Below, piece after piece: positions 1 to 62,669 of a stretch of 64,000 nucleotides of DNA. The position numbers and the translations under genes were made by a program. Each line of letters begins with the position of its first letter. The first letter of the stretch is position 1. The notes below the pieces were generated by a model. That model was not told the origin of the DNA. It saw nothing but the letters and a program-made list of their open reading frames with translations, and searched no databases. Source of the DNA: an uncultured Bacteroidales bacterium (GTDB lineage Bacteria; Bacteroidota; Bacteroidia; Bacteroidales; Paludibacteraceae); NCBI GenBank assembly GCA_946403315.1, contig CAMIZK010000001.1, forward strand, positions 1,588-65,587, written 5' to 3'.

Positions 1-1019
1 AGAAGTTCAATCTGCCCGATTTTATCGAGAAGGTTGAGCATTCAGCCATCAGCCATCAGCCATCTGCCATTTTTATCTCTCCCATCCGGGAGGTGGATGA
101 CTTCCACGGTGCCTACAGCAAGGATGACCGGACAAGGTGTTTCCTTAAAGTACAAGACGGATGTAACTATTTCTGCTCTTACTGCACCATCCCTATGGCA
201 CGCGGAAAAAGCAGAAACCCATCGATTTCATCGTTAGTAACAGAAGCCCAAGAAGCCTTAGACGGCGGTGCCAAAGAGATTATTTTAAGCGGCGTGAATA
301 TTGGTGATTTTGGTAGATCAACCAATGAACATTTCATTGACCTATTACGCGCTTTGGATAATCTTCAATCTCCAATATCCAATGTCCAATCTCCAATGGA
401 TACGTACCGTATCCGCATCTCCAGCTGTGAACCGAACCTGCTGAGCGATGAGATCATCGATTTTGTAGCGCACAGTGCCCATTTTGCACCCCATTTCCAT
501 ATTCCGTTGCAGTCCGGCAGTAACACGGTGCTCAAGATCATGGGTCGCCGTTATACGCGTGAGTTATTTGCTGAACGCGTTGCGCATATTAAGACCGTCA
601 TGCCGCATGCCTTCATCGGCGTCGATTGCATGGTAGGTGTGCGTGGTGAGACCGCCGAGTGTTGGGCAGATTATGTCGATTTCATCGAGTCTTTACCCGT
701 TTCTCAATTGCATGTATTCACCTATTCCGAACGCGCCAACACGCGCATGCTCGAGATGGATCTGGAGGTGATTCCGCAAAAAGAACGGGAACGCCGCAGC
801 AAAGTGCTGCACGAGATATCGGCTCGTAAAACTGAGGCGTTCTACAAAGAACACGAAGGCTTTGAGGCCCTCGTGCTTTGGGAGTCCGGTAACGGACGAA
901 AGGCGAACGGTGACCGGCTAATGTACGGTTTCACCGAGAATTATATCAAGGTCAGTTGTCCGTACAATCGTGCTAAAGTGAACACGTTTGAGCGCATAAC
1001 CGTGCCGCATCTTCATTAG
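1..1019 (+). CDS. mtaB: tRNA methylthiotransferase of the MtaB/MiaB radical-SAM family; the 5' end lies outside the window
   Basis: The frame of ORF 93..1019 stays open back to nt 3 (KFNLPDFIEKVEHSAISHQPSAIFISPIREVDDF...). CNYFCSYC is a CxxxCxxC radical-SAM motif. SGVNIGDFG and PHFHIPLQSGS motifs are present, with a TRAM-like C-terminus. The gene carries three in-frame heptamer arrays. Confidence 0.8.
   Translation, partial: KFNLPDFIEKVEHSAISHQPSAIFISPIREVDDFHGAYSKDDRTRCFLKVQDGCNYFCSYCTIPMARGKSRNPSISSLVTEAQEALDGGAKEIILSGVNIGDFGRSTNEHFIDLLRALDNLQSPISNVQSPMDTYRIRISSCEPNLLSDEIIDFVAHSAHFAPHFHIPLQSGSNTVLKIMGRRYTRELFAERVAHIKTVMPHAFIGVDCMVGVRGETAECWADYVDFIESLPVSQLHVFTYSERANTRMLEMDLEVIPQKERERRSKVLHEISARKTEAFYKEHEGFEALVLWESGNGRKANGDRLMYGFTENYIKVSCPYNRAKVNTFERITVPHLH
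43..70 (+). repeat. Heptamer array, CAGCCAT x3 plus CTGCCAT, in frame in mtaB (SAISHQPSAI)
   Basis: Read directly: cagccat cagccat cagccat ctgccat. Confidence 0.9.
360..394 (+). repeat. Heptamer array of the AATCTCC family, 5 units, in frame in mtaB (NLQSPISNVQSP)
   Basis: aatcttc aatctcc aatatcc aatgtcc aatctcc. Confidence 0.9.
887..921 (+). repeat. Degenerate heptamer array of the GGCGAAN family in mtaB (GNGRKANGDRL)
   Basis: cggtaac ggacgaa aggcgaa cggtgac cggctaa. The peptide matches the ANGE-type arrays elsewhere in the window. Confidence 0.6.
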
Positions 1020-1881
1020 GCAGACATTCCAGTTTATACACCGGAACGAGTTCCAACACCTGCGCGATGGATTCATAGATATGATCCATCATCTCCGGCA
1101 TCACTTTCAGTCCACTTACCGAAGCGAGGATATACGGATACGCCTGCGACATACGCAGTTTATTAATCTTATTCTCAGGCGCTTGCGCTAACTGTACCAA
1201 TGCCTGCAGGGTCACAGACTGCTGCTTGTAGCACGGGGTCTTTCCCGACCACGGCGAACCATAGACACGGACCGTATTATCCTCCAGCACACGCACCACA
1301 GGATTATCGTCATTCAACAGCCACGACTCCGGAAAGGCTTTCTTCCACTGCTGGGAATGGGTACTCTTTCCCGTTCCCGAATGACCAAGGAACATATGGC
1401 CTTTGTCGTCCAGCACGGTAACGGACGAATGGAAAAGAAGGGTCTTCTTGTCTCCCGTGGCAAAGGCATAGACCAGCATCGCCGCATTATCAATGGCAAA
1501 ACGCGTATAGGCAGCACGGGAATACAGTTGCACATCCCTCCAATCCCGAGAGCAAACCATCGTGCTCACCACCTCTCCTTCCCTACTCATCGAGATACGG
1601 AACAGCCATGCATCCGGACGCTGATACATCTCTATACGCGGCATATCGTCATCCGAACGATCCGTATAAACATGCTCCCAGCCTTCGGGGGAAGGCATGG
1701 CTTCGTCATTGAAATGAATGACGAAGAGGGGGGACGGGTTACGGGTTACGGGTGAGAGGAAGGGAGCATAGTTCGGCAGCTGTTTCACTTGTTCTTCTGT
1801 CACTTCCATGCCGAAAACGAAATCGGCGACATTAAAATAATTTACCATTTTATCATTTACCATTTGTGCATTTATTTTCAA
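973..1881 (-). CDS. HPr kinase-like P-loop protein of unknown role
   Basis: GHSGTGKSTH resembles the HprK C-terminal-domain P-loop. The start overlaps the stop of the upstream addB-like gene by 4 nt (1878-1881). It has one in-frame heptamer array (SPVTRNPSP). Its 3' end overlaps convergent mtaB by 47 nt. Confidence 0.55.
   Translation of the reverse strand: MKINAQMVNDKMVNYFNVADFVFGMEVTEEQVKQLPNYAPFLSPVTRNPSPLFVIHFNDEAMPSPEGWEHVYTDRSDDDMPRIEMYQRPDAWLFRISMSREGEVVSTMVCSRDWRDVQLYSRAAYTRFAIDNAAMLVYAFATGDKKTLLFHSSVTVLDDKGHMFLGHSGTGKSTHSQQWKKAFPESWLLNDDNPVVRVLEDNTVRVYGSPWSGKTPCYKQQSVTLQALVQLAQAPENKINKLRMSQAYPYILASVSGLKVMPEMMDHIYESIAQVLELVPVYKLECLPNEDAARLCAQTCSL
1729..1756 (-). repeat. Heptamer array with sense unit CCCGTAA (plus strand GGGTTAC), in frame in the HprK-like gene (SPVTRNPSP)
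   Basis: Plus strand: gggggac gggttac gggttac gggtgag. Confidence 0.85.
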
Positions 1882-4664
1882 AATTCTTTGGGTTTACGGC
1901 CGCAGAGCACGAAGAAGGGACAGAATTTAGGACATCTGCCTTCTTCGCACGGCGGAAAATCGGTTGTTTGTAACACTTGTGCTACTTTCGCTTGTAAGGC
2001 CGGCATCAGTTTCTCTTGAATGGCGCTTACATCGTGAACCGTTTCATTCTCCAGATCGAGTGTCGTCACCATATCCGTCAGTTTGCATTTGCAGAAATAC
2101 AGATGCGGTTCAATCGGCAGGTGCGTATCATCATGTTGCCGCACGGCTTCGGAATAGATCAGCGTCTGCCGTACATAACCTTTGTCTTCGCTTTCCATCA
2201 AGTCCTCCCAGGTAGCCGACATCTTCTTGGCATGCGTGGTGTCGGAATACGAACCGGATTTATAATCCACCACACGCAAGTGCTGATCGCCTTCCGGACC
2301 GTATATATCCAGTCGATCGACACGTCCGCCGGTAAGCACTTCCCCTACTCCTTCCACCGGTACGGTAAACAGCCGTTCCTGCTCTAACAGATGAATCTGC
2401 AATCCGACTTTCGCATCTTCGCGGTCACGCTCCAAGATATTGGATACATAGCCTTTGATGACCACATTCTCCGACGCATGTTCATCGGGGTTATACAGGT
2501 TCTCCTCTTCGTTCATAATCCGGTAGGCCTCCATCAGCGCCTCATTCATCTTGGCTTCATCGGTACGGATTGCCTCGATTTCATCGGGAGAAACACGTAC
2601 CGGCGCTTTGTTATCGCATTGCAGATAGTTCTTATAGATATGCTCCATCATATGATGCACGAACGAACCCATCGTAGCGGCATTGAAGAGCACTTCCTTC
2701 TCATCTTTCGGCCGTACACCGCGGATATACTGGAAATAAAACGAGCGGGGACAAGCTATGAACGTATTCAGCGCCGAAGGCGAGATGAGATACCGTTTGC
2801 CGTCTGCACGACGCAGGACACCGGTTTCGTCCTTTGTTAACATGCTTAACAAAGAGACATTGGAGATTGGAGATTGGAGATTGGATATTTCTGTCAGTTT
2901 GGCATCTTCCTGCAGGGTATATTGTTGCACGGCAAATTCCTCCGAATAGAGCAGTTGCATCACAAACCGCGACATCCCTTTTCCGCCTTCTGCACTCTGC
3001 GCATTGGCGTACATAAGCGTTGCCTGACCGGTACGGTTCAACAGACGGAAGAAGTTATACGCATAGACCGTTGCCCGTTCATCCGGCGTCTGCATATGAT
3101 AGGTCTTACGCAGATAGAAGGGAATGAAGGACAAGTCATTCTGCCGTTGCGGCAGCACTCCTTCTTCCACATTTAATATCAGCAATCTGTCAAAATCCAA
3201 CAGACGCGTCTCGAGTACACCCATCACTTGGATGTCCGTCACCGGTTCGCCATGGAACGGCATCGTCACACTCTCCATCGTGCGGCGGATCAGTAACCGC
3301 AGCAGTTTGAGTGTAAACGGCACATCTCCTAAGCCGGTCTCCACCAAGGACCGCATCTGATAGATGATCTTATGCACCTGGTACTCCGACTCCAGCGCCA
3401 ATAACTCTTGCCAGGATAAAGGTGATTGGTCTTCTTCCGATTTCTTGGGGAAGATAGCCTGTGATAATTCCTCGATGAAATCGGGAGAAACCAGATCCTC
3501 CGCATGCCCTCTTACATGCTCATTGAGCCACGCCAGCACACGCGCATAGATGGCGGTGTTACGCAGCGGAAAACCTTTTGTGATATTAACAGGAGCCTTT
3601 TCGCCATCCACCGTAATCGCCGGTAACGCATATATAACCGGTTCTAACATCGTCTCATCGCAGATGACGACACCCACTTTCTGGCCCTTCGCCGTATAGT
3701 TCTCCAGTAACCACCGGTGCACATACTGCGCCTGGGATTCTCGAGAACTACATTCGATAAGGGTTACGGGGGACGAGTTACGGGTTACGGGAGATTGGAG
3801 ATTTTTACCTCCTAAAATATCCCTATTCTGCTTGGTGAAAGAGAAGGCTTTCTCGTTGGTCTGGAAATTCGGCACGTAGTCCCAGAAGAACAGCGCTTGG
3901 TCATTGTCTCTGAGCCGCAGCATCAGATCCCGTTCCACCGGTAAGAGGTAGTTAAAACCCACAAAGACAAACGTGCGGCCTTGTATCTGCTGTTGCACCG
4001 ACTCATCGTTCCAGTTCTCTAACACAGCGCGCTGCCGCATACCCGGATAGCCCTTTTGCTCCGCCTGCATCTGCGCTTTGAGAGCCTTGTACAGTTCGTA
4101 TAACTGCGTCCAAAGTACTTCATACTGCGCCTTGACGGAATCTCCATTCGCCTTTCGCCCTTCGCCATTGGCCATTAAGGCTTTCAGCCTTGACTCCGTT
4201 TCCGGATCCAACTGCCATTGTTCCAGTTCATGGGCGGCGATGGTGTTCTCGAAGAAATTCGGCACTTCCTCCGCCGGCATTGAGGCATCGATATTCGTGA
4301 AATCGGCCAACATCTGCCTACCCCAACCGTAGAAGAGATCCAATGACATTGGAGATTGGAGATTGGAGATTGGAGTAATCTGATTAATCAGATTATTCCG
4401 ATAAATCCGATATAATCTGACTATCGTAAACAGTTCATCTTCGGCATAGAGGGGACTGAGGTCATCCTGCAATTGGGTAAGCGTCCGTACACGCGGTGCC
4501 CACACCGCCTGCGCATGCCGTTCCTGCTGAAGCCGCAGCAGTTCGTCTTTCAGCACCAGACCGGCACGGTGAGAGGGTAAGACCAGCGTGGTGCGATTGA
4601 GCTGTTTCCACTCCATCTGATCTAAGATCGCCTCTGCTGTTTGTCGTAGAAAACTATTGTTCAT
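1878..4664 (-). CDS. AddB-like PD-(D/E)XK nuclease subunit
   Basis: The 928-aa protein has a C-terminal nuclease signature (GGRVDRLDIY...LRVVDYKSG) and terminal cysteines (FIACPRSF ... CEEGRCPKFCPFFVLC), as in the AddB Fe-S staple. It overlaps the addA-like gene by 4 nt. Four in-frame heptamer arrays are present. Confidence 0.75.
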   Translation of the reverse strand: MNNSFLRQTAEAILDQMEWKQLNRTTLVLPSHRAGLVLKDELLRLQQERHAQAVWAPRVRTLTQLQDDLSPLYAEDELFTIVRLYRIYRNNLINQITPISNLQSPMSLDLFYGWGRQMLADFTNIDASMPAEEVPNFFENTIAAHELEQWQLDPETESRLKALMANGEGRKANGDSVKAQYEVLWTQLYELYKALKAQMQAEQKGYPGMRQRAVLENWNDESVQQQIQGRTFVFVGFNYLLPVERDLMLRLRDNDQALFFWDYVPNFQTNEKAFSFTKQNRDILGGKNLQSPVTRNSSPVTLIECSSRESQAQYVHRWLLENYTAKGQKVGVVICDETMLEPVIYALPAITVDGEKAPVNITKGFPLRNTAIYARVLAWLNEHVRGHAEDLVSPDFIEELSQAIFPKKSEEDQSPLSWQELLALESEYQVHKIIYQMRSLVETGLGDVPFTLKLLRLLIRRTMESVTMPFHGEPVTDIQVMGVLETRLLDFDRLLILNVEEGVLPQRQNDLSFIPFYLRKTYHMQTPDERATVYAYNFFRLLNRTGQATLMYANAQSAEGGKGMSRFVMQLLYSEEFAVQQYTLQEDAKLTEISNLQSPISNVSLLSMLTKDETGVLRRADGKRYLISPSALNTFIACPRSFYFQYIRGVRPKDEKEVLFNAATMGSFVHHMMEHIYKNYLQCDNKAPVRVSPDEIEAIRTDEAKMNEALMEAYRIMNEEENLYNPDEHASENVVIKGYVSNILERDREDAKVGLQIHLLEQERLFTVPVEGVGEVLTGGRVDRLDIYGPEGDQHLRVVDYKSGSYSDTTHAKKMSATWEDLMESEDKGYVRQTLIYSEAVRQHDDTHLPIEPHLYFCKCKLTDMVTTLDLENETVHDVSAIQEKLMPALQAKVAQVLQTTDFPPCEEGRCPKFCPFFVLCGRKPKEF
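2854..2888 (-). repeat. Heptamer array with sense unit AATCTCC, in the addB-like gene (ISNLQSPISNV)
   Basis: Plus strand: gagacat tggagat tggagat tggagat tggatat. Confidence 0.9.
3761..3802 (-). repeat. Chimeric 6-unit heptamer array (CCCGTAA family joined in phase to the AATCTCC family) in the addB-like gene (NLQSPVTRNSSPVT)
   Basis: Plus strand: gggttac gggggac gagttac gggttac gggagat tggagat. This is 42 nt, or 14 codons. Confidence 0.9.
4141..4176 (-). repeat. Heptamer array with sense unit GGCGAAN, in the addB-like gene (MANGEGRKANGD)
   Basis: Plus strand: cattcgc ctttcgc ccttcgc cattggc catt. Confidence 0.85.
4350..4377 (-). repeat. Heptamer array with sense unit AATCTCC, in the addB-like gene (TPISNLQSPM)
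   Basis: Plus strand: tggagat x3 plus tggagta. Confidence 0.9.
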
Positions 4665-7600
4665 TTGACCTCCTCCAATTTATTCTTTCGTGCGTACCAT
4701 AGGTAACCGCGAACAGGGTTATAACCGATCCTGCGCAGTGCCTCTTTATATTCGTTCACCTGCGTATGGTATTTTTTATCCGGATGCTCTCCGAACTTAT
4801 AGTCCAGTACAATGGCTTCATGGGTGACGGGATTGATCATCACACGGTCCGGCCGCAGCTCCTGCCGGTCAATATAGATGGCTTCTTCGAGCCGCAACTC
4901 CCAAGGGGCCGTGAACCAGTCTTTCATCTGCTCATTGCCTTGCCATGCCGATGAAATCAGCGCTTTTAATTCCTCCCGTTGTGCTTTATCCTTGATCTGA
5001 CCATTACTTTCAAACATATCCAGAACGGCATCCAGTTCCTCGGCTTTTCGTACATGCGCGAAGATCTCATGGCATAGCGTTCCTTCATCCATACGTGCCA
5101 CACGGCGGTAGGCTTCATCGCCGTAATCGGTGTATAACGCACCTTCCTGGGACTGAACGAACTGCACTTGTTTGCCATCCGACCATAGTTCGGCCGTCTC
5201 CCCATTCGCCGTTAACCTTTCGCCATTCGCCTTTATCACCGGTGTTCCTACTTCGTAATCATCGGCACCGACAAAATCCATGATATAGCGTCCGACGTGG
5301 TTACAGGTACCCATGACGCCGTTGACCGTAACGGGATAGGAAGTATAGACAAAGAGATTATCTTCCGCCCGGGTGAGCGCCACATAAAGCATATTGAGGT
5401 TATCTATCCGCATGTTGGCATGCTCCTCCTCATGGGCCTCAGCATAGGCCGAATCACCCATCTCCGGTCCGTCTTGAATGGGCACATAATCATCGCCCAT
5501 GTTTAGTTCCGGAGCCACCGGACACCACACTTTCTGCGGATGCCGACCGGCTTCTTTAGGCCACATGCAGAACGGCACGAACAGCGTCTGCGCCTGCAGG
5601 CCTTTGCTGGCATGGACGGTCATGATACGGATGGCATCAGAGGACGTAGCCGGAATAGCTTTGGCATGCATGGTGTCTTCCCAATACGTGAGGAAATCCT
5701 CCTTGCTGCTGCCATATGCGCCTACGTACGCCCGTGTGCGATCCAATAAGTTATTGAGATACGCCGTCTCCGAACCGTGGTACTGGCCGTTCGCATCACA
5801 AAGCAGGATACGGATCAATTCACTGATGGTTTCAAAAAGCGGCGTATCGGGTGTGATGGAGGAACGTATTTGTTCGATGAAACCGATAGAACCTGTACGC
5901 ATCTCGATATACAAAGCCGCCACTAAATCGTTTTTCACCAGCACTCTCAGTCCGGCGATGACCAATTGCACATCTGCCGACGCTTCGAGTACATAACTGT
6001 CTGCACTGACCACCGGATAAGGCGACAGGTCACAGATAAGGTTAGCTTCTTTCTTCTCACGCACCAGAATGAGGATATCCGACAGGCGGGTTCCTTTTTC
6101 TACCAGTTCCCCAATGCGGTCAAACATATAGAGCGCCATTTCCTCTTTCGTTCCTTTTGGAAAGGCTTTGAACTGCACATACCCGCCGGGTTTCTTATCC
6201 GCCTGGTAGAACTGCGATAACTTCTCCTCCTTATATCCTTCTGAGTAGATACGTTCCGGAGCACCGTCTTTACGGATGATACGATCGAAGAGGGAGAGGT
6301 TGAATTTCACCACCTCTTCGGAACTGCGGAAGTTCTGGGTAAGCGATTTGAATTTTTTGTTCAATCGTTCCCCATTCGCCGTTAGCCTTTCGCCATTCGC
6401 CGTTAAACCGTCCATGATATGCCAGTCACCGTTTCGCCAACGGTAGATAGACTGCTTGATATCGCCTACCACGAGCAGGGTGTGACCGGCACCGGCCAAT
6501 ACATCTTCGAGGAGTTTCCGGATAACGGACCATTGCAGCTGGCTCGTATCCTGGAACTCATCCATCAGCACATGCTTGTACCGGATACCGGCTTTCTCCA
6601 AGATAAAGTCGGCATCGCCTTCGCGTAAGGCCTTGCTGAGCGTACCGGCTGTTCGTGCCAGCAGGGCGCAATTGGCTTCCGCCAGATTACGTTGGATGAG
6701 TGCCTGAAGGGACGCCATCAGTTCCTGATCACGCGAAAAACGGATGGTGAGTTGCAGCGTATTATATCTTCGCCCTACCCGTGCCGCCAGTTCCGTCGCC
6801 TGCGCCATCTCATCGGCATTACAACTCTTCTCACTCACACCGCGAAAACGGTCTCTGACCGGTACACTCTCCGGATCGGCCACACTGCGTTTGAGACGCT
6901 CGAAAGCGGCGGTCGTATTTCGGTTATAGGACTCAGGATTACAGTGTTTGAGCAAGTCTTTGAGTTCCCGGAACGAAGGATCGTTGGCCCATTGTTCCTC
7001 GATCGCCTTGCGTCTGCGTTCGATAGCCGCAGCATCAAAAAGAATCTGACCGTCTGCATCCAGCACCTGCACCGATTCGTTATACAGTTCCTTGGCCATG
7101 GCGCAGAGACTTTCCCTCACATCCCAATGACTCTCCTGATCGAGTTTAAGACGCATATATTCCTCCATGATCGCCCGGTCCGCAGGCGTCATGTCAGTGG
7201 TTAGCAACTGATCCACCGCCTGGCGTATCACATGGTCGATGTCCAGTTCGGTATTCAGTCCGGCACTCATCTGCAGCACACCGGCCAGACCGCTGAGCAG
7301 GGTCTGGAGAAAAGCGTCGATCGTCATGACGTGCACATTATCATAGTCCAAGAGCATGCGTTTGAAACATTCCCCTGCGCGCTGCGCCAGCAGTTCTTGA
7401 GGTGCTTCCGCATCACGCAGCATGAACTGCCGGGCACGATTCAGGAAATCCTCTTCCTGACCTTGCGAGATACCATGCAGGTACTTGATGATACGCTCAC
7501 TCATCTCCGACGTCGCCTTGTTGGTAAACGTAATAGCGAGAATAGAGCGATAGTCTTCACCGGACAGCAACAAACCTACATAATACGCTGCTAAAGTATA

Positions 7601-7669
7601 AGTCTTACCCGTTCCTGCCGATGCCTTACACACCGTCACCGGACGATTTATGTCGATTAATTGATCCAT
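4661..7669 (-). CDS. AddA-like UvrD/Rep-family helicase-nuclease
   Basis: Motifs seen are Walker A (ASAGTGKTYTL), motif II (LMDEFQDTS), TVHASKGLQ, YVALTRA, and a C-terminal PD-(D/E)XK-like element (RPDRV...IVLDYKFG). I place the start at ATG 7669 (MDQLIDINRP). The ORF-track extension to 7858 runs through the promoter. Confidence 0.85.
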   Translation of the reverse strand: MDQLIDINRPVTVCKASAGTGKTYTLAAYYVGLLLSGEDYRSILAITFTNKATSEMSERIIKYLHGISQGQEEDFLNRARQFMLRDAEAPQELLAQRAGECFKRMLLDYDNVHVMTIDAFLQTLLSGLAGVLQMSAGLNTELDIDHVIRQAVDQLLTTDMTPADRAIMEEYMRLKLDQESHWDVRESLCAMAKELYNESVQVLDADGQILFDAAAIERRRKAIEEQWANDPSFRELKDLLKHCNPESYNRNTTAAFERLKRSVADPESVPVRDRFRGVSEKSCNADEMAQATELAARVGRRYNTLQLTIRFSRDQELMASLQALIQRNLAEANCALLARTAGTLSKALREGDADFILEKAGIRYKHVLMDEFQDTSQLQWSVIRKLLEDVLAGAGHTLLVVGDIKQSIYRWRNGDWHIMDGLTANGERLTANGERLNKKFKSLTQNFRSSEEVVKFNLSLFDRIIRKDGAPERIYSEGYKEEKLSQFYQADKKPGGYVQFKAFPKGTKEEMALYMFDRIGELVEKGTRLSDILILVREKKEANLICDLSPYPVVSADSYVLEASADVQLVIAGLRVLVKNDLVAALYIEMRTGSIGFIEQIRSSITPDTPLFETISELIRILLCDANGQYHGSETAYLNNLLDRTRAYVGAYGSSKEDFLTYWEDTMHAKAIPATSSDAIRIMTVHASKGLQAQTLFVPFCMWPKEAGRHPQKVWCPVAPELNMGDDYVPIQDGPEMGDSAYAEAHEEEHANMRIDNLNMLYVALTRAEDNLFVYTSYPVTVNGVMGTCNHVGRYIMDFVGADDYEVGTPVIKANGERLTANGETAELWSDGKQVQFVQSQEGALYTDYGDEAYRRVARMDEGTLCHEIFAHVRKAEELDAVLDMFESNGQIKDKAQREELKALISSAWQGNEQMKDWFTAPWELRLEEAIYIDRQELRPDRVMINPVTHEAIVLDYKFGEHPDKKYHTQVNEYKEALRRIGYNPVRGYLWYARKNKLEEVK
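5196..5237 (-). repeat. Heptamer array with sense unit GGCGAAN and a 21-nt superperiod, in the addA-like gene (KANGERLTANGETAE)
   Basis: Plus strand: cgtctcc cattcgc cgttaac ctttcgc cattcgc ctttatc. Confidence 0.85.
6366..6407 (-). repeat. Heptamer array with sense unit GGCGAAN and a 21-nt superperiod, in the addA-like gene (TANGERLTANGERL)
   Basis: Plus strand: cgttccc cattcgc cgttagc ctttcgc cattcgc cgttaaa. This is 42 nt. Confidence 0.9.
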
Positions 7670-7687
7670 ACTAACGATTTTGCGGCG

Positions 7688-7720
7688 CAAAATTACAAAA
7701 AAAAATTGATATATGCAAAT
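7688..7720 (-). promoter_or_regulatory. Bacteroidota sigma-A-type promoter for the addA-like operon
   Basis: Sense strand: TTTGCATATATCAATTTTTTTTTG-TAATTTTG. The TTTG-to-TAnnTTTG spacing is 20 nt. The ATG lies 19 nt below the -7 box. Confidence 0.8.
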
Positions 7721-7763
7721 AATTGGAAAGAAAAATAAAAAAATGGAAAAAAATGCCTGTGCA

Positions 7764-7808
7764 CTTGCATATGTCAGAAAAAAGCAGTACCTTTGCACTC
7801 GCAAAGGT
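7764..7808 (+). promoter_or_regulatory. Promoter cassette with an overlapping hairpin (copy 1), driving the 2-hydroxyacid dehydrogenase gene
   Basis: cTTGCATATgtcagaaaaaagcagTACCTTTGcactcgcaaaggt. The spacing is 20 nt, and the inverted repeat is CCTTTGC-actc-GCAAAGG. It matches 16070-16114 at 44 of 45 positions. Confidence 0.8.
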
Positions 7809-7814
7809 TTGAAT

Positions 7815-8723
7815 ATGACAATAGCTTTTACGACACAGTTACCGAAAGAGGGCTTCAAACGATTGGAAGGCCATCTGCTGGACGCACCGAAAGAGGAAGC
7901 GGAGGTGCTGGTGAGTACGTTTGATTACAAGGTGACGAAACAGATGATAGACGCGATGCCGAAGTTAAGACTGATTGCTAATTTCGGCGCCGGATACAAT
8001 AACATCGACCTAGAGGCCTGTAAGTCACGAGGAATACGGGTGACGAATACACCGCAGCCGGTAATCGAACCTACGGCGGAGTTAGCCTTTGCGCTGATGA
8101 TCGATATCGCACGGAAGGTAAGTGAATTCGACCGGAAGGTAAGAGCCGGTCAAGCCGTATTCGGGGTAATGAACAACCTGAGTCATTCGCTGTACGGCAA
8201 GACATTAGGGATCTTAGGCATGGGTCGGATTGGTCAGGCATTGGCGAGACGTGCCAAGGCTTCCGGCATGAAAATCATTTACTATAACCGTCATCGTTTG
8301 TCCGATGAAATCGAGCAAACTTACGATGCTACGTACGTCGATTTTCAGATGTTGTTGCAGGATAGTGATTTTTTGAGTTTGAACCTGCCCTATACGCCCG
8401 AGGTGCATCATATTATCGGCAAGCCGGAGTTAGGTATGATGAAACGTAGCGCATACCTCATCAATACCGCACGCGGTGCACATGTGGATGAGGCAGCATT
8501 GGTGGAAGCATTGAAGAGCGGCATCATCGCCGGAGCCGCGATGGATGTATATGAACACGAACCTGCGGTTTCACCGGAACTTTTGGACTTACCGAACGTG
8601 GTGCTCAGTCCGCACACCGGTACCGGCACTTGGGAAGGACGCATCGCTATGTGCGAGAATGTATGCGACAACATCATCGCTTTTGAACAGAAGGAAATTA
8701 ATAAAATGAATATCGTATTATGA
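7815..8723 (+). CDS. D-isomer-specific 2-hydroxyacid dehydrogenase (glyoxylate/hydroxypyruvate reductase-like)
   Basis: GILGMGRIGQALARRA is an NAD-binding GxGxxG motif. NTARGAHVDEAAL, DVYEHEP and SPHTG motifs are present. I place the start at ATG 7815, just downstream of the promoter; the 7713 start is a spurious extension. Confidence 0.85.
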   Translation: MTIAFTTQLPKEGFKRLEGHLLDAPKEEAEVLVSTFDYKVTKQMIDAMPKLRLIANFGAGYNNIDLEACKSRGIRVTNTPQPVIEPTAELAFALMIDIARKVSEFDRKVRAGQAVFGVMNNLSHSLYGKTLGILGMGRIGQALARRAKASGMKIIYYNRHRLSDEIEQTYDATYVDFQMLLQDSDFLSLNLPYTPEVHHIIGKPELGMMKRSAYLINTARGAHVDEAALVEALKSGIIAGAAMDVYEHEPAVSPELLDLPNVVLSPHTGTGTWEGRIAMCENVCDNIIAFEQKEINKMNIVL

Positions 8724-9241
8724 AGAAACTTTTGATGATGGCAGCAGTGGCTATGATGGTAGCCGGCTGCGGAATGTTAAAGAACGGAAGTAATGCAACC
8801 GCAAGCAGTCAGCAGACAGCAACAAGCAGTCAGCAGCAGACGGCAGTTAATGCCGGTCAAGGAGCCGGAAAGGCGTTGTTGGCATTGTATAACCAGTACA
8901 AGGCAGACGGCAACAAGTATGACTACAAGAACATGCAGAACGCATTGAACACCGTGACACTGATTGCTAACTGCGAAGGACTGAAATCCAATTACAAGGA
9001 CAAAGAGTATCTGAAGGATTTCGGTAAAGGTTTGATCTCTTCTTCTTTAGGTATGGTGAATCAGAGCAATGTGGAGACGGTGACGAACAGTCTGGTGACG
9101 ATGGTGAAAGAAAACGAAACCGTACAAAACGCTACGCAGACGGCACAGAACACCGCTAACACGGCAGCCGGTTACGCCAATACCGCCTCCCAATACGCAG
9201 GCGCCATCAGTTCGTTACTCAGTGCATTTGGAGGGAAGTAA
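8720..9241 (+). CDS. Hypothetical lipoprotein
   Basis: It has a signal peptide and lipobox ([18 protein letters not shown]). The start overlaps the upstream stop in an ATGA arrangement. A low-complexity [14 protein letters not shown] segment is encoded by 7-nt-periodic DNA. Confidence 0.55.
8801..8842 (+). repeat. 7-nt-periodic (21-nt superperiod) nnnAGCA array in a lipoprotein gene ([14 protein letters not shown])
   Basis: gcaagca gtcagca gacagca acaagca gtcagca gcagacg. Confidence 0.6.
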
Positions 9242-10428
9242 TGAATATCACAGATCGTTTTTTGAAATACGTATCGTTCTGCACAACGAGTGACGAGAAT
9301 ACGGGCATGACCCCTTCGACACCGGGTCAGATGGAGTTTGCCAAGTATCTGGCGCAGGAGTTAAAAACCATCGGTCTCACCGAGGTTTCTCTCGATGAAA
9401 ACGGATATATTATGGCGACATTAGAGGCGAATGGCGAAGGGCGAATGGCGAAGGGCGAATGTCCTACCATCGGTTTCATCGCCCATATGGACACGAGTCC
9501 GGATGCCAGTGGTAAGCATATCAAAGCTTCGATCGTGAAAGCGGAAGAGCGCGATTATATCGATGCGCGTTATGCGGGTCAGGACGTGATTGTAACAGAC
9601 ACAACGACGCTGCTCGGTGCGGACGACAAAGCCGGTATCGCTGAGATCGTAACGGCGATGGAGTATCTGGTACAACATCCGGAGATCAAGCATGGCAAGG
9701 TGCGGGTAGGCTTTACGCCGGACGAAGAGATCGGCCAAGGAGCGGATCATTTTGACGTCAAAGCCTTCGGTTGCGATTTTGCGTACACCATGGACGGCGG
9801 TGCGATTGGTGAGTTGGAGTTCGAGAACTTCAATGCGGCATCGGCGAAAATCAAAGTGCATGGTCTGAATGTGCATCCGGGTTACGGCTATCATAAGATG
9901 CGCAACTCCATGCGCATCGCTTACCAGATTGCCGTCATGTTACCGCGTTTCCAGACACCGGAGCATACGCAGGGTTACGAAGGATTCTACCATTTGGTAG
10001 GCATGAACGGTACCGTAGAAGAAACCACACTCAGTTACATCATCCGGGATCATGACCGCACCCAGTTCGAATACCGCAAACGGGAACTGGAGCATTTGGT
10101 GCGTAAGATTAACACCGAGTTCGGAGAAGGCACAGCGGAGATCGAGATCAAGGATCAATACTATAACATGCGGGAGATGATCGAACCCGTCATGCACATC
10201 ATCGATCTGGCCAAAGAGGCCATGACTGCCGTGGGTGTAACACCTAACGTGAAGCCGATTCGTGGCGGAACAGACGGTGCACGACTGAGTTTTGAAGGTC
10301 TGCCGTGTCCGAACATCTTTGCCGGCGGAGAGAACTTTCACAGCCGGTACGAATACTTACCGGTACCGAGTCTTGAGGCCGCGGAACAAGTTATTTTGGA
10401 AATCATTAAAAAAGCATCAATATGTTAA
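9241..10428 (+). CDS. pepT: Peptidase T (tripeptide aminopeptidase, M20B)
   Basis: The N-terminus is [14 protein letters not shown]. Motifs [29 protein letters not shown] and RGGTDGA are present. It contains an in-frame heptamer array ([12 protein letters not shown]). Confidence 0.85.
9426..9460 (+). repeat. Heptamer array, GGCGAAT/GGCGAAG x5, in frame in pepT ([11 protein letters not shown])
   Basis: ggcgaat ggcgaag ggcgaat ggcgaag ggcgaat. Confidence 0.92.
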
Positions 10429-14141: not shown

Positions 14142-14207
14142 AATGCACAACAAAAATGTTTTGTATTTCAAAAATTGACAGAAAAATGCAAAAAAAATGA
14201 CAAAAAG

Positions 14208-23846: not shown

Positions 23847-23900
23847 TCTTTTATTGCATTATGCGTATACTCACGTACGCGCGTTAATTATATAATGTGA

Positions 23901-23927
23901 AAAGGCAAAAGGCATTTTACGCCTTTC
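23901..23927 (-). terminator. Possible hairpin downstream of rpmF, fused to the heptamer array
   Basis: Sense strand: AAAGGC-gtaaaat-GCCTTT followed by tgcctttt. The stem is short and the T tract is weak. Confidence 0.3.
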
Positions 23928-23957
23928 ACCTTTCACTTTTCACTTTTCACCTTTCTC
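23923..23957. repeat. Intergenic heptamer array, (C/T)TTTCAC x5, abutting the rpmF stop codon
   Basis: ctttcac ctttcac ttttcac ttttcac ctttctc. The last unit contains the rpmF stop (complement of tca). Confidence 0.85.
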
Positions 23958-24138: not shown

Positions 24139-24151
24139 AATATTCTAATTT

Positions 24152-24179
24152 TTTGATTTCTGATTTGTAATTTGTTATT
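24152..24179. repeat. Intergenic AT-rich heptamer array, TnTnATT x4, between the DUF177 gene and rpmF
   Basis: tttgatt tctgatt tgtaatt tgttatt. Confidence 0.7.
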
Positions 24180-24181
24180 TA

Positions 24182-24637
24182 TCAATCATCAATCTCGGGA
24201 TCCAAATCGTCACATAGGTGATCATGGAGGAGAAGTTCCATCTGCTTATTGCACTCACCTTCTTGGTGACAGTGAACGATCGGAATATTGATACTTACTA
24301 TTTCATAGGCGAGCCAAGAGAGATCGAGACGTTGACTATTAGCTATTGGCTGTTGGCCTTCTTCGTCTTCGGAGAATATCTCTTGTTCGTCATTTATTTC
24401 AAGGGGCATCGGGTCGAGGCATCTATCACACACGACAAAGACAGTTCCATGAACCGCGATGTTGAGCTGATAGTCCTCCTCCCGGAGATTTAGCGTCGCT
24501 TTTGCTACCACCGTTCCACTTAGAATTTCCGACTTCTCTAAGGAAGCAAAGAACTCGTCATCTAACTGAATATCAAACTGATGCGTGCCTATAGGCAGAC
24601 GCGACAAGTCGATCATATAGTGGTCTTTCTCGCTCAT
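24182..24637 (-). CDS. YceD/DUF177 family protein
   Basis: It sits in the conserved position immediately upstream of rpmF. It is an acidic protein of about 150 aa with CDRCL and HC..EGEC motifs. I place the start at ATG 24637, downstream of the promoter. Confidence 0.7.
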   Translation of the reverse strand: MSEKDHYMIDLSRLPIGTHQFDIQLDDEFFASLEKSEILSGTVVAKATLNLREEDYQLNIAVHGTVFVVCDRCLDPMPLEINDEQEIFSEDEEGQQPIANSQRLDLSWLAYEIVSINIPIVHCHQEGECNKQMELLLHDHLCDDLDPEIDD

Positions 24638-28853: not shown

Positions 28854-28882
28854 CAGTCAGCCATCAGACATCAGACATACAT
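28854..28882 (+). repeat. Heptamer array of the CAG(C/A)CAT family between the lipoprotein stop and the conserved start of the DAHP synthase homology
   Basis: cagt cagccat cagacat cagacat acat. It is in frame with the downstream GPCSAES motif (QSAIRHQTY). Confidence 0.85.
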
Positions 28883-46633: not shown

Positions 46634-47797
46634 TTATGCAATATCTGAATGCTGACGGCTGACGGCTGATAGCTTTTTCAAATGACAGAGCATGAGACTG
46701 CCGTCTTCCCGGCGAAGGTGCATTCCGTTGCCTTCGCAGAACGAGAAAGCCTTGCAGTCTTTGCAGGGTTCCGTTTGCCGCATCCAACTGCGGTCACGGT
46801 ACGGTTTAAATCCGTTTTCCCAAACGGACCAGAAAGAGTCTTTGTAGATATTGCCCTGGTAGTATTTTCCCCGGATGGAGGTGCAGGCAGATATCGAACC
46901 GTCGATGAGAATAGAGGCAACGGAGATACCGGCTGCGCATTGGTAGAGATGATCCCGTACACGCCCTTCATAGTCCCCCAAATAGCCTTCGCACGAATAG
47001 CTCACATGCCTACCCGCTTCCCGTTCGCACACGATATAGTCCATTAGCTGTTTGAACTGCGCATCCATAAGGATCAATTCCGGATTTTCCGCTGCACGCC
47101 CCATAGGGTCGATACCGAAGACACGCCAATTGCGAACACCCAGTTCCCACAGCATCTCCCTTATCGCCGGTAAGTGGTCTATCGTGCGCTGGTTCACACA
47201 CGTCACCACATCCCAGGCTATCGGCTGACGGCTGACGGCTAAATGCTGACGGCTGACGGCTGAATGCTGACGGCTGACGGCTGAATGCTGACGGCTGTTA
47301 TAATCCGCAATCAGTTTGATTGCTCGTGTGGCACCTTCGAAAGCCAAAGGGTGCTGCCGCAGCCATACATGGTCCGCTTCCAAACCGTCACACGAGACGG
47401 TGATGGAGCGTAAACCGGCATCTAACAGTTCATGAAATTTCTTCTCCGTCAGCGCCAAACCGTTGGTCACCATTCCCCATGGATAGCCGCGTTGCTTGAG
47501 CGCCCTACCCACTTCCGCCAAGTCTTTGCGCATCAGCGGTTCACCGCCGGAGATAACGATCATCACTTCATGCGGATCCACGTGCGGTGTCACTTCCGTG
47601 TCGATGACCTTAAGAAAGTCTTCCGCCGGCATGTCCGGCGTCTCGATAGACGCAATGCAGTCGCTGCCGCAATGCAGGCAATGTACATTACATCGTAATG
47701 TGGACTCCCAGAACAGCTGGCGTAACGGATGCAACTCCTTCAAGTTATGCCTCCGCCAACGCTCTAACCACAGCGCTATCTTCAGCCTCAGTCTCAT
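46634..47797 (-). CDS. Radical SAM enzyme with a C-terminal SPASM domain
   Basis: CNVHCLHC is a CxxxCxxC motif, and ISGGEPL is present. The C-terminal Cys-rich SPASM-like region reads CAAGISVASILIDGSISAC...CKDCKAFSFCEGNGMH. The start overlaps the lipoprotein stop (ATGA, 47794-47797). It has two in-frame heptamer arrays. Confidence 0.85.
   Translation of the reverse strand: MRLRLKIALWLERWRRHNLKELHPLRQLFWESTLRCNVHCLHCGSDCIASIETPDMPAEDFLKVIDTEVTPHVDPHEVMIVISGGEPLMRKDLAEVGRALKQRGYPWGMVTNGLALTEKKFHELLDAGLRSITVSCDGLEADHVWLRQHPLAFEGATRAIKLIADYNSRQHSAVSRQHSAVSRQHLAVSRQPIAWDVVTCVNQRTIDHLPAIREMLWELGVRNWRVFGIDPMGRAAENPELILMDAQFKQLMDYIVCEREAGRHVSYSCEGYLGDYEGRVRDHLYQCAAGISVASILIDGSISACTSIRGKYYQGNIYKDSFWSVWENGFKPYRDRSWMRQTEPCKDCKAFSFCEGNGMHLRREDGSLMLCHLKKLSAVSRQHSDIA
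46644..46671 (-). repeat. Heptamer array with sense unit CAGCCGT, at the extreme C-terminus of the rSAM/SPASM gene (LSAVSRQHSDIA-stop)
   Basis: Plus strand: tctgaat gctgacg gctgacg gctgata. Confidence 0.85.
47217..47300 (-). repeat. 12-unit (84 nt) heptamer array with a 21-nt superperiod inside the rSAM/SPASM gene (SRQHSAV x about 4)
   Basis: Plus strand: gctatcg gctgacg gctgacg gctaaat gctgacg gctgacg gctgaat gctgacg gctgacg gctgaat gctgacg gctgtta. Confidence 0.95.
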
Positions 47798-48812: not shown

Positions 48813-51053
48813 ATGCAGAAAAGTGAGTTCACAGAGGCTGAAGAGCAAATGATCCAACGCGAGTTTGAGGCGTTGCTGGACGACTATGCCCACACTCCCC
48901 ACCGGCAGAAAGTGGAGATCATCACGCATGCGTTCAATTTTGCGCACAAGGCGCACTACGGAGTGCGTCGGTTGAGTGGTGAGCCGTATATCATGCATCC
49001 CCTTGCTGTCGCGCGCATCTGTGTGCGTGAGATCGGTTTGGGTAGCACGAGTATCTGTGCTGCGTTGTTGCATGATGTGGTGGAAGACACCGATTATACG
49101 GTGGAAGACATCGCCGGGCTGTTTGGCGACAAGATCGCCCAGATCGTGAGTGGTCTGACGAAGATCAGCGGCGGAGTGTTCGGCGACCAGGCGAGTGAAC
49201 AGGCGGAGAACTTCCGTCATCTGCTGCTCACCATCAACGAGGATATCCGTGTCGTACTGGTGAAGATCGCCGACCGCCTGCATAACATGCGTACGTTGGG
49301 TGCCCAGCCGAAAGAGAAACAGTACAAAATCGCCGGTGAGACAGAGTATATCTACGCGCCGTTAGCGCACCGCTTAGGTCTGTTTCCGATTAAGACGGAG
49401 TTGGAGGATCTGAGTTTCAAATACGAACATCCGGAAACCTGGCAGGAGATACACGACAAGCTGGAGGCAGTAAAGGCATCGCAGTTGGAGAGTTTCGAGC
49501 AATTTGCCAAACCTATCCGTGAACGGTTGACGTCAATGGGTTACACCTTCTCGATGAAGGCGCGTATCAAAACCGTCTATTCGATCTGGAAGAAGATGAT
49601 GAGCAAGCAATGTGCCTTTGAGGACGTATATGACCTGATGGCCGTTCGAATCATCTTCACGCCGCACGAGACGATGAGTGAGAAAGACCAGTGCTGGATG
49701 ATCTATTCGGCCATCACGGAGTTTTATCGTCCTCACCCGGAACGGATACGCGACTGGATCTCGACGCCGAAGGCGAACGGATACGAGGCCTTGCATGTGA
49801 CGGTCATGGGCACTCACGGCGAGTGGATCGAAGTGCAGATCCGTACCGACCGCATGAACGAGATTGCGGAACACGGCTACGCGGCGCATTGGAAATACAA
49901 GACCGGGGTGTCAGACGATTCGGAACTGGATAAGTGGTTGCAGGAGATCAAGGATATCTTGGCGCACCCGGACACCAACGCGATGGATTTCATCGGTAAT
50001 TTCCGTTTGAACCTTTTTGCGCAAGAGGTGTTTGTCTTCACGCCGACCGGTGAGATCAAGACCATGCCTGCCGGATCGACCGCTTTGGATTTTGCGTTTA
50101 TGCTGCATTCCGAGATCGGAGAGCATTGTATGGGAGCCAAAGTCAACCACACGCTGGTGCCGCTTTCGTATCAACTGAAAGGCGGCGACCAGGTGGAGAT
50201 CATGACGTCCAACAGCCAGCATCCCCAGAAGGAGTGGTATAACATGGTGACGACGTCCAAGGCGCGTAACGGACTGAATGAGTACTTCCGCAAGGAAGAA
50301 CGCAAATATATCAAGCACGGAGAGCGTCTGTTCAACGATGCCGTCGCGATGGATAAGGACCTCGCCAAGAACCACGATCAGGCTTTGGCACGGATCTTGT
50401 CGTACTACCAAAAGAACAAACCGGATGAGTTATATCTGGAGATAGGCCAAGGTGCGATTAGGCTGGATAACCTCCGGGAGATCGTCTATCCGAGACGCAG
50501 TCTGCTGTCGTATGTGCCGTTTATCGGCAAGAAGCCGTCAGTAGTCAGCGTTCAGCCTTCAGAAGAAAACAAGGAGATCGTCAAGCCGCAGAAAGGACGG
50601 CACCGGATCATCCTGACGGATGAGAACTTAGGCAAGGAGTATATCCTCAGTCCCTGCTGTCATCCGATACCGGGCGATGAGGTGTTAGGCTACCTGGACG
50701 AGAAAGGCACGATGCATATCCATAAGATCGACTGCGACGAGGCGATGGTGCTCAAGAGCAGTTTCGGCAAACGGATCTACGAGGCGACGTGGAACACCCA
50801 TCGTGTGCAGTCGTTTGTGGAGACGATCGAGCTGAAGGGTATCGATAAGTTCGGTGTCTTCATCCGGGTACTGCAGAAGATCACGACGGATTTCCACATC
50901 AACCTGCGTTCGGTGAACGTGGTGAGTGACGACGGAATTTTCAAAGGCACCATGGAGATCTACGTCTATGACCGAAGCGAGTTGGAACAGTTATTGAAAG
51001 CGATCCGTCAGATTGAAGATGTCAAAGAAGTTAAACGAGTAATTAAAGAATAG
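48813..51053 (+). CDS. RelA/SpoT-family (p)ppGpp synthetase/hydrolase
   Basis: The HD domain (HPLAVARI...LHDVVEDT), synthetase domain (RIKTVYSIWKKM, YEALHVTV, EVQIRT), a TGS segment (VFVFTPTGEIKTMPAGSTALDFAF) and a C-terminal ACT-like domain are present. Confidence 0.9.
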   Translation: MQKSEFTEAEEQMIQREFEALLDDYAHTPHRQKVEIITHAFNFAHKAHYGVRRLSGEPYIMHPLAVARICVREIGLGSTSICAALLHDVVEDTDYTVEDIAGLFGDKIAQIVSGLTKISGGVFGDQASEQAENFRHLLLTINEDIRVVLVKIADRLHNMRTLGAQPKEKQYKIAGETEYIYAPLAHRLGLFPIKTELEDLSFKYEHPETWQEIHDKLEAVKASQLESFEQFAKPIRERLTSMGYTFSMKARIKTVYSIWKKMMSKQCAFEDVYDLMAVRIIFTPHETMSEKDQCWMIYSAITEFYRPHPERIRDWISTPKANGYEALHVTVMGTHGEWIEVQIRTDRMNEIAEHGYAAHWKYKTGVSDDSELDKWLQEIKDILAHPDTNAMDFIGNFRLNLFAQEVFVFTPTGEIKTMPAGSTALDFAFMLHSEIGEHCMGAKVNHTLVPLSYQLKGGDQVEIMTSNSQHPQKEWYNMVTTSKARNGLNEYFRKEERKYIKHGERLFNDAVAMDKDLAKNHDQALARILSYYQKNKPDELYLEIGQGAIRLDNLREIVYPRRSLLSYVPFIGKKPSVVSVQPSEENKEIVKPQKGRHRIILTDENLGKEYILSPCCHPIPGDEVLGYLDEKGTMHIHKIDCDEAMVLKSSFGKRIYEATWNTHRVQSFVETIELKGIDKFGVFIRVLQKITTDFHINLRSVNVVSDDGIFKGTMEIYVYDRSELEQLLKAIRQIEDVKEVKRVIKE
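50537..50564 (+). repeat. Possible decayed heptamer array, (G/T)TCAGnn x4, in the RelA/SpoT linker (PSVVSVQPSEE)
   Basis: gtcagta gtcagcg ttcagcc ttcagaa. The periodicity is weak. Confidence 0.35.
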
Positions 51054-56222: not shown

Positions 56223-56223
56223 T

Positions 56224-56258
56224 TGAAAAATGAAAAATGAAAATTGAAAATTGAAAAT
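56224..56258. repeat. Intergenic heptamer array, TGAAAA(A/T) x5, immediately after the asnS stop
   Basis: tgaaaaa tgaaaaa tgaaaat tgaaaat tgaaaat. Confidence 0.9.
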
Positions 56259-56291
56259 TTCATATCATAAAAACACTAACAAACAATCGTT

Positions 56292-62576: not shown

Positions 62577-62669
62577 ATTGTGTGTATTTTTGAATTGCTT
62601 TTGGGTATTTAGAGGGTAAGGACTCTATAGTGCCGTTGTAAGGTGGTCCGTGGATGAAACCGATTATAA

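Follow-up and report, generated by a model that had tools for sequence, protein, structure and literature searches.

Tandem heptanucleotide arrays as a clade-wide and changeable feature of genes and spacers in rumen Paludibacteraceae

We analysed a stretch of 64,000 nucleotides (nt) from a rumen Paludibacteraceae (Bacteroidales) genome, hereafter the window, which comes from a metagenome assembly, as do all of the relatives compared with it. According to Tandem Repeats Finder and a lag-match scan, about 20 tandem arrays of period 7 are present in the window and nearly none of other periods, and about 15 of them lie wholly within long open reading frames (ORFs) that read straight through them (ORF mapping). 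At the score cut-off of at least 9, the lag-match scan gave 15 arrays of period 7; each of the other periods from 4 to 13 gave only 0-2, and shuffled sequence gave 0.2. These arrays are probably dispersed heptanucleotide repeats, produced by 7-nt out-of-register pairing (slippage together with short-patch conversion or template switching) and filtered by selection at the protein level.

The excess of period 7 extends to the relatives. Taking one genome per species, we assembled a clade set of 80 loci (1.61 Mb), nearly all of them in metagenome-assembled genomes from rumen or gut that bear the label Paludibacteraceae or Bacteroidales, in which the locus nearest to the window is L010 (RUG14556) with 94.3% nucleotide identity. 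The close homologues of the AddB-like protein of the window likewise carry the name Paludibacteraceae. The 1.61 Mb, from 81 genomes in the count by period, contain 293 arrays of period 7, compared with 2, 10, 33, 40, 9, 68, 15 and 6 at periods 5, 6, 8, 9, 10, 11, 12 and 13, respectively. At least one period-7 array is present in about 65 of the 80 loci, and the density ranges from 0 to 0.58 per kb, being about 0.2 per kb across the rumen and gut Paludibacteraceae loci. It is evident that the heptamer arrays are a clade-wide and period-specific property, which varies from lineage to lineage.

The arrays of the window are listed below with their coordinates and strand; for genes on the minus strand, units are given in the sense direction.
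42..70, plus strand: 4.1 units of TCAGCCA, in frame in an MtaB-like radical-SAM gene; peptide SAISHQPSAI.
360..397, plus strand: 5.4 units of AATCTCC in the MtaB-like gene, beginning on the native codons GAT AAT CTT; peptide NLQSPISNVQSPM.
887..921, plus strand: 5 degenerate units of GGNGAAN in the MtaB-like gene; peptide GNGRKANGDR.
1734..1753, minus strand: 2.9 units of CCCGTAA in an ScmC-like ORF, an equal-length overwrite of a variable loop; peptide PVTRNPSP.
1840..1875, minus strand: degenerate array of 7/8-nt units located at the 5' end of the ScmC-like ORF and hypervariable from strain to strain.
2856..2889, minus strand: 4.4 units of AATCTCC in an AddB-like gene, in predicted coil with a predicted local distance difference test (pLDDT) score <50; peptide ISNLQSPISN.
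3761..3802, minus strand: composite of 2 units of AATCTCC followed by 4 units of CCCGTAA in the AddB-like gene; peptide NLQSPVTRNSSPVT.
4141..4176, minus strand: 5 units of GGCGAAN in the AddB-like gene; peptide ANGEGRKANG.
4345..4375, minus strand: 4 units of AATCTCC in the AddB-like gene, with at least six alleles in a 90%-identity protein cluster; peptide PISNLQSPM.
5196..5237, minus strand: degenerate GGCGAAN array in an AddA-like gene; peptide KANGERLTANGE.
6366..6407, minus strand: 4.9 units of GGCGAAN in the AddA-like gene; peptide TANGERLTANGER.
8804..8836, plus strand: weak AGCAGAC-like array in the ORF 8720-9241.
9426..9461, plus strand: 5.1 units of GGCGAAK, with a perfect 14-nt period, in pepT, in the loop preceding the metal-binding HxD motif.
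23900..23955, no strand: 2 units of AAAAGGC, a 7-nt spacer and then 4.9 units of the inverse CCTTTCA, intergenic between YceD-like and pseudouridine-synthase genes.
24150..24194, no strand: degenerate period-7 array spanning the 3' end (stop codon) of the YceD-like gene.
24332..24357, minus strand: 3.7 units of GCCAAYA in the YceD-like gene.
28857..28878, plus strand: 3.1 units of TCAGMCA, intergenic, directly after a stop codon, of the same family as arrays in coding sequence.
46645..46669, minus strand: 3 units of TCAGCCG at the C-terminus of a radical-SAM/SPASM protein.
47216..47297, minus strand: 10.9 units of TCAGCCG/TCAGCAT (3.5 copies of a 21-nt super-unit) in the radical-SAM/SPASM gene; SRQHSAV three times.
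50545..50562, plus strand: 2.5 weak units of TCAGCNT in a RelA/SpoT-like gene.
56221..56259, plus strand: 5.6 units of TGAAAAW, intergenic between a class-II aminoacyl-tRNA synthetase gene and the next gene.
61652..61693, plus strand: 5.6 units of AGCCATC in folK (HPPK); peptide AISHQPSAIS.

An earlier note on this DNA had described heptamer arrays that are read in frame inside conserved enzymes. Period-7 arrays were found at essentially every position that it gave, those at 887-921 and 5196-5237 being present in degenerate form, and every one of them lies inside a long ORF. The unit families and their peptides were likewise confirmed (AATCTCC for NLQSPIS, GGCGAAN for ANGEGRK/ANGERLT, TCAGCCR for SAISHQP/SAVSRQH and CCCGTAA for VTRNPSP), and its argument that 7 and 3 are coprime, so that an array encodes the same periodic peptide in every frame, is correct; SRQHSAVSRQHSAV is among the peptides expected from translation. 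The hosts were also named properly: a radical SAM protein of the MiaB/MtaB type (with the UPF0004 domain in a full-length orthologue), an AddB-like nuclease of the PD-(D/E)XK type, an AddA-like helicase of the UvrD type, peptidase T (1e-134 to PDB 3ife), HPPK, and a radical SAM protein with SPASM. The note had overlooked the spacer and gene-end arrays (1840-1875, 23900-23955, 24150-24194, 28857-28878 and 56221-56259) and three weak coding arrays (8804-8836, 24332-24357 and 50545-50562).

Comparison with orthologues and solved structures showed that many arrays add residues to their hosts. PepT is 5 amino acids (aa) longer than 3ife and 1fno, and its periodic stretch has 24-28 residues, compared with 19-20 in array-free Paludibacteraceae orthologues (5-6 more here). 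In MtaB, the segment of aa 120-133 (360..397) has 10 aa more than the 16-residue state of most orthologues, and that of aa 295-307 (887..921) has 5 aa more than the ancestral state (SKKDG; 20 residues in most orthologues). In other species, the former loop carries independent insertions of other units, and the latter carries AAAGTCG, AAAAATC or GGTTAGC arrays. Similarly, the radical-SAM array (47216..47297) occupies a gap of about 25 residues relative to 7vob, and the array region of HPPK is about 18 residues longer than solved HPPKs (8sk1, 4cyu). These cases support the proposal of the earlier note that the arrays are lineage-specific insertions into loops. On the other hand, the arrays at aa 42-52 of the ScmC-like protein, aa 810-826 of AddA and aa 14-24 of MtaB are equal-length overwrites of variable loops, and at these sites the segment length is constant in nearly every species, whether the segment is periodic or not. 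At the last site (42..70), nearly all MtaB orthologues carry some 7-aa-periodic peptide, with differing units (AAAGTCG in L010). On the whole, the periodic segments are additions that individual lineages acquired in loops, and they do not go back to ancestral sequence.

A different kind of insert was observed in the MtaB loop of 360-397 in L030, L033, L035 and L059. It is GCCCCCCAGCCCCCCAAAGGGGGAG, an inverted repeat of a C-run and a G-run with the peptide APQPPKGGE, and it is duplicated in L035. Therefore, this loop accepts other repeat types too.

The turnover of the arrays is fast enough to be seen between strains. In an alignment of 14.5 kb of the window against L010, L235 and L236, each of about 94-95% nucleotide identity, heptamer arrays accounted for 16 of the approximately 18 strongly divergent or indel blocks. 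Thus, at about 95% identity, strains differ in structure chiefly by their arrays, which are also the leading cause of differences in protein length. In blocks of presence/absence, the net in-gene differences are 6, 6, 6, 9, 15, 18, 18, 21, 24 and 36 nt, and gene junctions differ by +30 and +21 nt. In the second kind of block, an array is swapped for one of a different unit at equal length. The in-gene length differences between strains are always multiples of 3, without preference for multiples of 7. No out-of-frame (+/-7 nt) allele was present in any assembly or cluster member compared, where these are consensus assemblies and rare variants are below their reach.

Individual sites illustrate both kinds of change. 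Even the 98%-identical strain L007 differs from the window at two array sites. At the AddB site of aa 88-106, at least six alleles exist, and new arrays of +7 aa and +12 aa appeared in single strains of the 90%-identity cluster. The radical-SAM array has three 21-nt super-units in the window, whereas L109 has a single one, so that the copy number differs by exactly 42 nt in frame. Long arrays change in steps of 21 nt. In strains with a 100% identical flanking synthetase, an AATGGCG/AAAGGCG array stands in place of the TGAAAAW array of 56221..56259. Different units were also found at the AddA-like site of 5196..5237 (ACGGGTT in L010 and TTGGCTA in L235/L236), at the AddB-like site of 3761..3802 (in-phase units CGGGTTA, TTGGCTA and TTGGTGA at equal segment length in four strains) and at that of 4141..4176, where orthologues hold peptides of the NVQSPIS or SSNRQ type. 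The loop of pepT (9426..9461) harbours four further unit families in related strains and species, and the pepT array itself is the same in six assemblies and differs by no more than point changes across its protein cluster.

Two more sites deserve description. In L236, a 30-nt AGGTGAT/AGGTTAT array at 5352-5385 (corresponding to 9219-9263 of the window) splits two genes whose stop and start codons overlap in the window (TAATG), and pepT acquires a new N-terminus there (MGIVDR vs MNITDR). Therefore, arrays can remodel gene junctions. In the 173-aa ORF at 8804-8846, AGCAGAC-like units are mixed with CAG in a stretch rich in Gln and Ser, and L002 has 3 nt more (one CAG codon); this difference is ordinary trinucleotide slippage beside a weak heptamer array.

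With regard to genomic placement, 63% of the arrays in the clade loci lie fully in ORFs and 37% are intergenic or cross ORF ends, and ORFs make up about 93% of the DNA. The arrays seem to be concentrated in genes only because about 90% of the genome is coding; per base, they are depleted in coding sequence and several-fold commoner in spacers and gene ends. Therefore, a system "invading" coding sequences, as the earlier note called it, is the wrong picture. Among the edge arrays, 43 overlap stop ends and 14 overlap start ends of genes.

Within genes, arrays are confined to a few permissive loops per protein. In the AddB family, 49 arrays found in 29 of 81 orthologues map to 7 alignment sites, with many different units per site. 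Five AddB sites which are occupied or variable in the window protein fall in predicted coil with pLDDT <50 between helices, in agreement with the loop position that the earlier note had proposed; the AlphaFold model is of moderate quality (mean pLDDT 64.8) and served for loop placement only.

The orientation and composition of the coding arrays also reflect what a protein can tolerate. For 95 of the 153 coding arrays, the opposite orientation would bring in a stop codon. The sense peptide is the more hydrophilic one in 49 of the 58 arrays that are stop-free both ways (mean Kyte-Doolittle hydropathy -1.54 for sense vs +0.63 for antisense, p=2e-9), and likewise for 25 of the 28 distinct units. 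The encoded residues are mostly S, Q, T, R, K and N. The unit CCCGTAA contains TAA in one frame, and its arrays either stay below 3 units or contain a mutation. This filter of stop codons and hydrophilicity explains why AATCTCC, AAAGTCG and other units keep strictly to the sense orientation, and no strand-specific mechanism is needed. An array survives inside a gene only with a sense strand free of stop codons in all frames, a hydrophilic peptide, a net length change of a multiple of 3 and a site in a loop.

How the arrays may arise can be pictured as follows. An array would start where the native sequence already resembles one or two units, and it would then grow, or be rewritten, through out-of-register pairing by 7 nt. 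Repair of such a pairing as gain or loss of units would be slippage, and repair as short-patch conversion or template switching would leave the length unchanged, homogenise the units and let the periodicity spread into native flanks. Protein-level selection would filter the outcome, and the peptides would be tolerated passengers rather than functional modules. At 1722-1770 in the ScmC-like ORF, four strains have the same length, and the units GGGTTAC, TGGAGAT and AGGTGAG are all in phase with the native GGAAAGG and have the pattern xGGxxAx in common; TTCGCCA and TTGGCTA differ at two positions. At 8288-8343, a CGGTTAG array stands in place of a non-periodic native stretch of equal length, in which the native GAG was kept. 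In general, equal-length alleles between strains keep the same 7-nt phase and have 2-5 unit positions in common, which fits out-of-register pairing repaired as conversion, in which there is no length change and a frameshift is avoided. Possible seeds were recognised for ATTGGAG on the native GTGATTGGTC, ATTAAAA on the native ATTAAAAAA, GACTACT on the native GACTACC, AATCTYC on the native GAT AAT CTT, and AAAGTCG/AAAGGCG on the native AAAGACG.

Several observations weigh against this account. In a permutation test for local seeds, the mean minimum distance was 2.02 vs 2.15+-0.065 (p ~0.025), a weak signal obtained with "empty" comparators that are mostly species of just about 70% identity. Plain slippage predicts multiples of 7, and most of the net changes (6, 9, 15, 18, 24 and 36 nt) are not. 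The unit differences between strains are bimodal, being 0 or 3-5 of 7 positions, which has the look of wholesale replacement, and the replaced tracts are at most about 50 nt long with ordinary flanks. Different families dominate in sister strains: GGTKAWN fills eight or more sites along 14 kb of L235/L236, and several of these sites are empty in the window and L010. Identical units make up 5.6% of array pairs within a genome and 1.1% between genomes, where 0.08% is expected from native 7-mers; the recurrence of one unit family at many unlinked sites is beyond slippage alone. Moreover, we know of no established process of ectopic conversion between 30-nt arrays of 60-70% identity.

Two other sources of the swaps were considered and rejected. 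Import of divergent alleles by homologous recombination would involve long tracts, which are unlikely, since the flanks of replaced arrays are no more divergent than the background. Gradual neutral drift of units as the sole cause would give about 1.3 differences per 7 positions at this divergence, compared with the bimodal 0 or 3-5 observed.

These points lead to the idea of an active templated writer, in which one or a few master templates of a lineage would install heptamer arrays at many sites or overwrite existing sequence, in the manner of very small mobile elements. The template would be RNA or DNA serving a dedicated polymerase or reverse transcriptase, or else a large pool of donor arrays on which template switching draws. 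Such a writer would account for the genome-specific families (GGCGAAN, AATCTCC and TCAGCCR at 4-6 window sites each, in addition to GGTKAWN in L235/L236), for identical units within a genome at 70-fold the native 7-mer prediction, for net insert lengths that are not multiples of 7, for replacement restricted to the array, for the swapped intergenic array beside an unchanged synthetase, and for arrays composed of two families (3761-3802). However, no candidate enzyme was found among the 17 window ORFs scanned with Pfam or among the other window genes that have precomputed Pfam labels in related loci; all matches are housekeeping, several ORFs being outside the scan. Conserved flanks, terminal repeats and target duplications are also absent. 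The alleles at one site are anchored on native sequence in a common 7-nt phase with 2-5 of 7 positions in common, as would be expected from descent with modification. The 184 coding arrays comprise about 90 different units on the sense strand, and in viral contigs a heptamer permuted at will occurs as often as the clade's own units. We regard the writer as the main rival and a minority possibility, and the more general form of the idea, a lineage-specific writing or homogenising process (by a trans template or by array-to-array switching) which installs a dominant family and overwrites loops without length change, as similarly unlikely.

Other explanations fare less well. The arrays may be kept for a function of their own, as flexible linker peptides or as DNA or RNA motifs (protein-binding, structured, pause or leader elements). 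Their clustering at gene edges recalls TAACTGA and GGGAATC, for which regulatory roles were proposed (PMC4679880, PMC4692102), and the site of aa 14-24 in MtaB is periodic in nearly every species. However, close strains do not keep the same unit at a given site, many orthologues lack arrays in these loops and show no sign of compensation, unit repertoires vary between genomes, and avoidance of stop codons and hydrophobic residues fully explains orientation and composition; we consider such a function improbable. Phase-variable contingency loci, in which gain or loss of one 7-nt unit shifts the frame and switches a gene on or off, are suggested by the unit length, which is not a multiple of 3, by the polymorphism between strains and by the phase-variable heptanucleotide repeats known in the Haemophilus HMW1/2 promoters. 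The housekeeping hosts, the short arrays (3-5 units), the constant length of the pepT array in six samples, the in-gene differences confined to multiples of 3 and the lack of out-of-frame alleles among those seen make this reading very improbable. Finally, the origin of all sequences from metagenome assemblies could raise suspicion of assembly or chimera artefacts, a possibility that the earlier note had set as a check. Six independent assemblies of different samples contain exactly the same pepT array, and most of the others recur in L002, L007 and L010. Identical arrays are found in independent ENA, JGI, NCBI and Logan assemblies made from different samples with different assemblers, the reading frames stay open, and the arrays are shorter than a sequencing read, so that we practically dismiss an artefact. 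Out-of-register pairing under protein-level selection is the reading we prefer.

Some features of the window stand apart from the heptamer arrays in genes. The two parts of the intergenic array at 23900-23955 are near reverse complements (AAAGGC pairs with GCCTTT); as read from the sequence, they could form a hairpin, and this may act as a terminator. Tandem arrays of period 11 occur in spacers at 62669-62731, 48563-48612 and 14170-14206, and also in L010-L089 (e.g. 5.7 units of ACCTACTAATC). With 68 arrays in 1.6 Mb, period 11 ranks second among the non-harmonic periods of the clade (2-48 for the others from 5 to 15, with 15 included), and it is also prime and near one helical turn. A single ORF of 3164 aa (36953-46447, 9.5 kb) has a faint Cadherin-like Pfam match and no strong heptamer array, and it probably encodes a giant surface protein. 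A MutS2-type protein with MutS domain V and Smr is encoded at 24729-26990.

Because each array inside a conserved gene has an orthologous site that is empty or differently filled in a close relative, the clade offers a natural experiment, in which alignments directly expose seeding, phase, steps of growth, replacement and the protein-level filter. The arrays are also useful markers for rumen strains of about 95% identity. Moreover, they inflate the apparent divergence of proteins, add low-complexity loops to enzymes and can mislead gene callers and the clustering of metagenome proteins. If a writing or homogenising process were real, it would be an unrecognised mutational mechanism behind most of the diversity of loops and spacers in the clade, and it could explain the general bacterial excess of tandem heptamers.

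Tandem heptamers are widespread beyond Paludibacteraceae. Among viral contigs (IMG/VR), arrays of three units were found in 17 contigs for AATCTCC, 50 for AAAGTCG, 36 for TCAGCCG and 38 for the permuted control ACTCATC, where about 0.03 are expected by chance. These counts give no evidence of special properties of the units or of their horizontal spread across phyla, since the permuted control is as common as the units of the clade. In several viral contigs with a G+C content of about 62%, 3-5 different heptamer arrays were found per contig. A search of a database of 5.8 billion proteins with six copies of NLQSPIS gave 18 weak matches, in small hypothetical ORFs (Kuenenia, Chloroflexota and Caldilineae), a search in which short arrays inside proteins score too low.

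We compared the arrays with classes of known repeats. The excess of period 7, the recurrence of families at unlinked loci and the over-representation in non-coding DNA and at gene termini, which characterise dispersed heptanucleotide repeats, were all found here. The canonical units of the short tandemly repeated repetitive (STRR) sequences are CCCCAGT, TTGGTCA and CAACAGT, known from heterocystous cyanobacteria; the name and these units reportedly go back to Mazel et al. in 1990. Our arrays are not STRRs in this strict cyanobacterial sense, as the host is a Paludibacteraceae member and the units are others, the TTGGTCA class being seen just once among the relatives (L047). Nor do the consensus units, as read from their letters, belong to the G-quadruplex class of heptamers (GGGNATC type), in which each unit has a G-tract and four units give a G-quadruplex, as most lack a run of three G and the sense-strand units are A-rich; ACGGGTT (= GGGTTAC) is an exception, as it contains GGG and its array at 3761-3791, both here and in L010, reaches at least four units. 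In-gene differences of multiples of 3 and housekeeping hosts separate the arrays from contingency loci. They also differ from miniature inverted-repeat transposable elements, repetitive extragenic palindromic sequences and other small dispersed repeats, since filled and empty sites show no conserved flanks or duplications and arrays merge in phase, and from targets of diversity-generating retroelements, since whole units are replaced rather than adenines changed. No reverse transcriptase was found among the Pfam-scanned window ORFs or the precomputed labels, some window ORFs being outside the scan.

The arrays belong with the cyanobacterial STRRs, Xanthomonas GGGAATC, Nostoc GGGGAYT and Beggiatoa TAACTGA repeats. 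Tandem heptamers were reported as the most abundant periodic repeat in prokaryotic intergenic regions by Mori et al. (SPADE, 10.1101/309039), who saw "no clear clue" to what they do, and heptanucleotides are the commonest long simple-sequence repeats with units of 5-11 nt according to the summary of Mrazek et al. 2007 given in PMC4679880. These surveys resemble our results in that period 7 is favoured and arrays are put down to a general tendency of expansion rather than to function (PMC4679880, PMC4692102, 10.1101/309039). They differ in dealing with large genomes, stressing intergenic regions and expecting units of multiples of 3 in coding sequence, whereas units that are not multiples of 3 are common in genes here. 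The contingency loci of Haemophilus and Neisseria likewise have short tandem units of non-multiples of 3 in or beside genes and change in length by slippage; unlike them, our arrays are short, show no out-of-frame alleles in the assemblies compared and reside in housekeeping genes, not in surface or restriction-modification genes.

The earlier note was not aware of such a system in Bacteroidota. In fact, TAACTGA repeats were described in Beggiatoaceae, cyanobacteria and five Bacteroidetes including Paludibacter propionicigenes, with no mechanism evident for spread between lineages (MacGregor 2015, PMC4679880). These repeats are similar to ours in occurring at many sites as direct repeats with 2-6 copies or more, in having stop codons that limit their orientation in ORFs, and in encoding a 7-residue periodic peptide, LSVISYQ (PMC4679880). 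They differ in being overwhelmingly intergenic, just upstream of start codons, in having one dominant unit, and in that their intragenic copies are mostly in small hypothetical proteins; the TAACTGA unit was not seen here. In the literature searched, we found no account of many co-existing families, of an in-frame majority inside conserved enzymes, of fixed hot spots in loops, of equal-length overwrites in phase or of dominance in strain-level structural variation. The mostly intragenic, multi-family form with fast turnover therefore appears to be undescribed in that literature, and to this extent the claim of novelty stands for the scale and behaviour of the in-frame arrays.

Finally, another close parallel is given by the four-unit repeats. 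Xanthomonas GGGAATC and Nostoc GGGGAYT prefer about four units and positions close to stop codons, and in Nostoc 32% are intragenic (Rehm et al. 2015, PMC4692102). Both the Nostoc PCC 7120 repeats and the STRRs are like the present arrays in that few families cover very many loci, with about 4 units, an excess in non-coding and stop-adjacent positions and an intragenic fraction. Unlike them, the present arrays are found in Bacteroidota of the anaerobic gut, with many co-existing families rather than one to three and with units that are not G-rich, and therefore the rationale of G-quadruplexes is inapplicable. Moreover, most of the arrays here are intragenic and in frame in conserved enzymes, and their turnover is documented at the level of strains.

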